NCBI RefSeq assembly: GCF_041248615.1
Contig: NZ_CP158426.1
Reading direction: 5' to 3' (one strand)
DNA length: 64,000 nt
Origin: Escherichia coli
GTDB taxonomy: Bacteria > Pseudomonadota > Gammaproteobacteria > Enterobacterales > Enterobacteriaceae
Of the stretch, positions 43,025-43,088 are shown one piece after another; position 1 is the stretch's first letter; every line of letters begins with the position of its first letter. The position numbers and the translations under genes are program-made. The notes under the pieces are model-generated. The model was not told where the DNA came from. It saw nothing but the letters and a program-made list of their open reading frames with translations, and did not search any database.

Positions 43025-43088
43025 CTTCCGATGTAGACCCGTATTCTTCGCCTGTACCACGGGTCGGTTTTAGTACAGGCGTTTTCTT
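43025..43088 (+). ncRNA. rydC: RydC small regulatory RNA (Hfq-dependent, pseudoknotted) with intrinsic terminator
   Basis: cttccgatgtagacccgtattcttcgcctgtaccacgggtcggttttagtacaggcgttttctt matches my recollection of RydC; perfect 9-bp terminator stem (cgcctgtac / gtacaggcg) followed by a T-run; located between ydcA and cybB. Confidence 0.65.

Follow-up and report, generated by a model that had tools for sequence, protein, structure and literature searches.

Which function resides in a stretch of 64 nt between the genes ydcA and cybB of Escherichia coli, in which a perfect hairpin is followed by a run of T? Does it encode an RNA in its own right, does it terminate the transcription of its neighbors, or does it belong to a coding region? 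We have examined these questions in a window of 64,000 nt (contig NZ_CP158426.1), i.e., the whole stretch of DNA that was analysed and to which the coordinates below refer. A preliminary description had named the stretch RydC. It is virtually certain that positions 43025–43088 of the plus strand are the E. coli rydC gene, which encodes the 64-nt Hfq-dependent small RNA (sRNA) RydC. The locus comprises the following elements:

42681 to 42854, minus strand: ydcA, the upstream neighbor, coding for a 57-aa periplasmic protein (ORF list, K-12 and RefSeq annotation).
43014 to 43019, plus strand: the -10 box of rydC, a perfect TATAAT (read from the sequence, identical in K-12).
43025 to 43088, plus strand: rydC, the gene of the 64-nt sRNA RydC (full-length RF00505 match, identity with K-12).
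43099 to 43629, minus strand: cybB, coding for cytochrome b561/superoxide oxidase (ORF list, RefSeq annotation of the identical locus and of K-12, Pfam PF01292).

The assignment is carried by two comparisons, both of which had been suggested in the preliminary description. When the whole window was searched against Rfam 15 at gathering thresholds, four matches were obtained, RydC (RF00505) among them. With 92.5 bits (E 5.2e-17) the covariance-model match is well above the gathering score of 48, and it spans model positions 1–64 of 64 at 43025–43088 on the plus strand, i.e., it runs from end to end. In an alignment with rydC of K-12 MG1655 there are zero differences over 65 of 65 positions. In the curated K-12 record (NC_000913.3) the gene is listed as rydC (b4597, also IS067; 'small regulatory RNA RydC') at 1491442–1491506 of the minus strand, between cybB and ydcA. 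Its K-12 annotation is one T longer and extends to 43089 in window coordinates; all bases of the 64/65-nt RNA are the same. The sequence in the window is CTTCCGATGTAGACCCGTATTCTTCGCCTGTACCACGGGTCGGTTTTAGTACAGGCGTTTTCTT. Nothing contradicts the identification as RydC. RydC was first described in 2005.

The genomic setting agrees as well. The RNA lies in the gap between ydcA and cybB, as had been stated initially. It is divergent from ydcA and convergent with cybB, the same arrangement as in K-12, and the -10 box, the orientation and both neighbors are shared with K-12. The cybB stop codon (43099–43101, minus strand) is 10 nt away from the RydC 3' end. A cybB homologue adjoins RydC in all variants which were checked, divergent relatives included. 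Within the species the gene is almost universal: 5411 of 5426 complete E. coli genomes contain rydC as a single copy, 4063 of these 5411 copies are at least 99% identical, and the remainder differ by 1–4 bases. Automated annotation is silent at this position. In about 30 sampled E. coli RefSeq genomes no PGAP feature was found at rydC, and the curated K-12 record alone names it. The copy in the window is an already known gene; no unusual feature and nothing new were found in it.

Strain TUM14771 (NZ_CP128875.1, L002) is 100% identical to the window over 42600–43700. It carries an IS150 between trg and hokB (L002 391–1760) which is absent from the window, as a comparison with 42062–42459 demonstrated. 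Close by, an Rfam 'sok antitoxin' match of 113.8 bits is located at 42314–42465 of the plus strand, the same strand as hokB (42460–42609, plus), and the K-12 sokB antisense RNA maps to 42356–42412 of the minus strand. The match on the hokB strand therefore covers the hokB/mokB mRNA leader, and its strand should not be read as that of the antitoxin RNA. On the other side of cybB, gapC (43818–44819, plus strand) is an intact 333-aa ORF for glyceraldehyde-3-phosphate dehydrogenase with both Pfam GAPDH domains, whereas it is annotated as a pseudogene in K-12.

The whole window corresponds to the reverse complement of K-12 at about 1.47–1.53 Mb with roughly 97–98% identity, and several differences were encountered at a distance from rydC. 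The K-12 element IS609 (1503161–1504908, insQ/yncK) is absent at 31368/31369, where the flanks join cleanly. At 13318–15343, with the homologues of pqqU (yncD) and mcbR on either side, there is an insertion of about 2 kb relative to K-12. Within it, a match to the Rfam family STnc490 'Hfq binding RNA' (13328–13451, plus strand, 146 bits) is directly followed by an ORF for an IS200-like Y1 transposase (13461–13919, plus, PF01797) and then by one for a Mutator/IS256-type transposase (14085–15293, plus, PF00872). We take STnc490 to be the leader/antisense (art200) region of IS200. The region 262–7392 differs from the K-12 rhsE pseudogene region. It has a full-length Rhs ORF of 1403 aa (1210–5421, minus), which shares just 82% identity with K-12 over a stretch of about 1.5 kb; its stop codon is overlapped by a 161-aa pentapeptide-repeat ORF (728–1213, minus) which may code for the immunity protein. 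A DDE transposase ORF (5843–6700, minus) also lies within the Rhs region. Just downstream of the Rhs toxin/immunity pair, beside H-repeat transposase sequence, Rfam reports a group-II-D1D4-2 intron match (552–660, minus, E 1e-6), whose 48 bits exceed the gathering score of 36. As about 261–660 is too short for a whole intron, this is probably a fragment.

Is rydC equipped with a promoter? The perfect TATAAT box ends 5 nt ahead of the RydC 5' end. A recognizable -35 box was not found; the best candidates for TTGACA at 16–18 bp spacing match 2 of 6 positions. This agrees with the published rydC promoter, whose description names a perfect -10 box but no obvious -35 box (bioRxiv 10.1101/2024.02.12.579971). 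A consensus promoter scan made no call upstream of rydC because it demands a -35 box. In K-12 the GntR-family regulator YieP lowers rydC transcription about 20-fold; its repression was demonstrated on a fusion that included 171 nt of K-12 sequence ahead of rydC (bioRxiv 10.1101/2024.02.12.579971). The ydcA–cybB intergenic regions of the window and K-12 are 99% identical overall. They differ by five substitutions, all upstream of rydC, at -81, -68, -46, -45 and -25 as counted from the RNA 5' end, and all inside the 170 nt ahead of rydC which were compared. These substitutions may alter YieP repression in this lineage.

The sequence folds into two interleaved helices, the parts of which are:

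43036 to 43042, plus strand: 5' arm of stem 1, nt 12–18, GACCCGU, pairing with nt 35–41 (helix of the Rfam model).
43047 to 43048, plus strand: U23/U24 step of loop 1 (in the sequence; invariant in 10 aligned variants).
43049 to 43057, plus strand: 5' arm of stem 2, the terminator stem, nt 25–33, CGCCUGUAC, forming a perfect helix with nt 49–57.
43059 to 43065, plus strand: 3' arm of stem 1, nt 35–41, ACGGGUC (Rfam model helix, helix pairing, alignment).
43070 to 43071, plus strand: U46/U47 step of loop 2 (in the sequence).
43073 to 43081, plus strand: 3' arm of stem 2, the terminator stem, nt 49–57, GUACAGGCG, forming a perfect helix with nt 25–33.
43082 to 43089, plus strand: U-rich 3' tail, UUUUCUUU, the T-run of the terminator and the Hfq proximal-face site (role from PMC4337610).

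Stem 1 consists of 7 Watson–Crick pairs (-10.5 kcal/mol alone) and stem 2 of 9 Watson–Crick pairs (-13.8 kcal/mol alone). The 5' arm of stem 2 is situated within the loop of stem 1, thus both helices together form an H-type pseudoknot. The second helix and the U tail are at the same time an intrinsic terminator: the perfect 9-bp stem and T-run of the preliminary description are found as nt 25–33 paired with nt 49–57, followed by TTTTCTTT at 43082–43089. Minimum-free-energy folding sees stem 2 alone and returns a z-score of -0.48, which is uninformative because the algorithm cannot form pseudoknots. In place of single-sequence folding, helices were counted explicitly and compared with 5000 dinucleotide shuffles of the 64-mer. 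Of these, 3 contained a perfect helix of at least 9 bp and 0 the interleaved helices of 9 bp and 7 bp.

The predicted Hfq recognition elements, a 3' U tail and UU steps in both loops, are all present. In the literature U23/U24 contacts the Hfq rim and is needed for RydC stability, and U46/U47 is described as a rim contact as well (PMC4337610). G37 and G39, the mutation of which destabilizes RydC in vivo (PMC4337610), are likewise present. The fold as such is backed by published mutational and crystallographic evidence (PMC4337610; PMC3985669).

Given a hairpin and a T-run between convergent genes, one may argue that the element is nothing but a terminator, especially for the 3' end of cybB, and that an independent sRNA does not exist. 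The proximity of the cybB stop codon, just 10 nt away, is in line with such a view, as is the finding that no other terminator-like site for cybB was detected on the minus strand between 43000 and 43098. However, in the minus-strand reading it is AAGAAUAC and not a U-run that comes after the 9-bp stem, therefore the T-run serves the plus strand. Further, a perfect -10 box is positioned at the right distance upstream on the plus strand, and the 24 nt upstream of the hairpin, seed and stem 1 included, are as conserved as the hairpin itself and match the RydC model. Finally, in K-12 the identical sequence has been detected as an RNA and binds Hfq (bioRxiv 10.1101/2024.02.12.579971; PMC4337610), and a K-12 strain deleted for yieP showed a discrete plus-strand transcript of about 64 nt from this identical locus (bioRxiv 10.1101/2024.02.12.579971). 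A role solely as cybB terminator is very improbable, and we have rejected it on account of the missing minus-strand U-run and the conserved 24 nt ahead of the hairpin.

Do variants and relatives preserve the fold of RydC? In a first scan of a contig collection the search pattern fixed stem 1, part of stem 2 and the E. coli loop lengths. This pattern proved too stringent, yielding only three Escherichia loci and one chance match (L006). A metagenome scan anchored on both the RydC 5' end and the final bases of stem 2 yielded 120 loci, of which about 80 are real RydC and the rest chance matches; at the level of distinct metagenome sequences about 30 of 37 lack RydC features and were discarded as chance matches. 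Ten distinct sequences, comprising metagenome loci and two variant E. coli genomes, entered a structure alignment. Across these variants 96.5% of the cells of the pseudoknot are paired, compared with 25–42% when the partners are slid by 1–3 columns. For stem 2 the value is 100%. In the two relatives that diverge most, compensatory double changes are seen at the three loop-proximal pairs of stem 2. The variants of stem 1 are exclusively transitions to G-U wobbles (A13G, A35G, C41U) and contain no compensatory change. Judged from these alignments, covariation appears supportive of the RydC fold, not strong, because the two related sequences represent perhaps one evolutionary event per pair.

The two divergent relatives (L053 and L067, both from metagenome contigs) are 67 nt long and adjoin a cybB homologue which is 84–91% identical in protein; ydcA was not found on their contigs. 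The 5' seed (nt 1–17) is identical to that of the window RydC, although the pattern by which relatives were collected fixed nt 1–10 and the last bases of stem 2, so the conservation of these bases is partly by construction. The same two interleaved stems, the UU steps in both loops, the U tail and the site beside cybB are shared. The differences are located in the top three pairs of stem 2 (U-A to C-G, A-U to G-C, C-G to U-A) and in both loops, which are changed and each one base longer. At position 42 these relatives have a U, therefore A11 pairs there, whereas E. coli RydC has an A-G mismatch at this place. Presumably, both resemble the RydC of Salmonella and Citrobacter.

In addition, 47 distinct haplotypes of 344 nt were compared. 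Variation is far lower in the core promoter and RydC than on either side of them: on average, a fraction of 0.01–0.04 of the haplotypes deviates from the window in the core promoter and the RNA, a value to be read with the proviso that the collection patterns fixed or nearly fixed nt 1–17 and nt 52–57, against 0.098 in the 135 nt further upstream and 0.081 in the 10-nt gap before cybB.

These haplotypes also bear on coding capacity. The stretch had initially been described as not captured by any ORF. This is literally untrue, since two ORFs of the mechanical list overlap RydC:

42967 to 43128, plus strand: ORF of 53 codons starting with ATG (mechanical ORF list).
42948 to 43073, plus strand: ORF of 41 codons starting with TTG (mechanical ORF list).

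Neither is annotated in K-12. Might the region code for a small protein, then? As a mechanical frame the 53-codon ORF is real, and K-12 as well as many E. coli haplotypes have it intact. However, its ATG is located upstream of the -10 box, 58 nt before the mapped RNA 5' end, and the frame crosses the intrinsic terminator. Of the 47 haplotypes listed, 7 interrupt it by a stop after 3 or 9 codons, and 8 others, among them the most divergent relatives, lack an ATG at this position. Not only the K-12 annotation but also PGAP ignores it. The substitutions that do occur keep base pairs, as G-U wobbles or compensatory changes, which suggests that RNA structure, and not a protein, is under constraint. 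The chance that the 53-codon frame is a gene is next to nil, and it was rejected on the haplotype evidence. Within the RydC seed, nt 7–12 (43031–43036, plus strand) read AUG UAG, a start followed immediately by a stop; an obvious Shine–Dalgarno sequence was not found there, and the motif is probably meaningless.

What, then, would RydC do in this strain? The preliminary description had characterized RydC as an Hfq-dependent, pseudoknotted regulator of cfa, and the literature agrees on these attributes (PMC4337610; PMC3985669; bioRxiv 10.1101/271551; 10.1101/2024.02.12.579971). In front of the compact pseudoknot the sequence has a free 5' end of 10–11 nt, which contains the following element:

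43027 to 43036, plus strand: 5' seed, RydC nt 3–12, UCCGAUGUAG (predicted pairing with the cfa mRNA leader).

A search for cfa in the 64-kb window was negative; yieP and hfq also lie outside. Pairing was therefore tested on the cfa leader of K-12. In an RNA duplex prediction with its 212-nt 5' UTR, nt 3–12 pair with -108 to -99 from the AUG in 10 consecutive pairs, one of them G-U, with -15.2 kcal/mol. Of 2000 shuffled seeds only 7 reached this level. The RydC site lies in a 51-nt segment of the cfa leader which occurs at an identity of at least 95% in 5422 of 5426 E. coli genomes. Experimentally, the seed mutants C5G and C4G/C5G abolish regulation (bioRxiv 10.1101/271551; 10.1101/448696).

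Expression of RydC, its stabilization by Hfq and the activation of cfa are known from the identical RNA of K-12 and from RydC of Salmonella. Hfq holds the U tail in its proximal pore and the UU steps of the loops on its rim, and RydC requires Hfq for its stability (PMC4337610). On the long cfa transcript, which depends on sigma-70, pairing shields an RNase E site next to the paired segment (bioRxiv 10.1101/271551) and counteracts Rho-dependent termination (bioRxiv 10.1101/2024.02.12.579971). By this pairing both cyclopropane fatty acid synthase and resistance to acid are increased (bioRxiv 10.1101/271551; 10.1101/2024.02.12.579971; 10.1101/2024.02.02.578684). With the same seed pheA is repressed and trpE activated (bioRxiv 10.1101/448696). 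Repression of csgD and regulation of yejABEF by RydC have been reported (PMC3985669), but these targets were not reproduced in a later study (bioRxiv 10.1101/448696). OmrB appears to sponge RydC (bioRxiv 10.1101/2024.02.12.579971).

If published work on the identical RNA is carried over, YieP would keep the sigma-70 promoter of rydC nearly silent. Once made, RydC would be bound by Hfq, the U tail in the proximal pore and the UU steps on the rim, and in this manner be protected from decay. In the long sigma-70-dependent cfa transcript the 5' seed would pair some 100 nt ahead of the start codon, mask the RNase E site and lower Rho-dependent termination. More cyclopropane fatty acid synthase would be produced and the membranes would become more acid-resistant. 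The same seed would also repress pheA and activate trpE, and OmrB could sponge RydC. ArrS is, like RydC, a cfa-activating sRNA; its sequence is unrelated and its locus a different one.

The crystal structure of RydC with Hfq, the targets of RydC and its repressor are already published, and the discovery value is small. The practical worth is one of annotation: flagging rydC correctly in this strain is useful because automated RefSeq annotation gives no feature there in the genomes sampled. Further, the preliminary description showed that a 64-nt sRNA can be recognized from sequence alone.

A U-tract terminator for cybB was not found on the minus strand. As cybB ends 10 nt away and has no U-tract of its own, stem 2 of RydC may affect its transcription, i.e., the hairpin might stop, or fail to stop, the convergent transcription of cybB. 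It is conceivable, though unlikely, that cybB read-through transcripts, which would be perfectly antisense, titrate or destabilize RydC. If this were true, RydC activity would be linked to the expression of cybB, that is, of superoxide oxidase.
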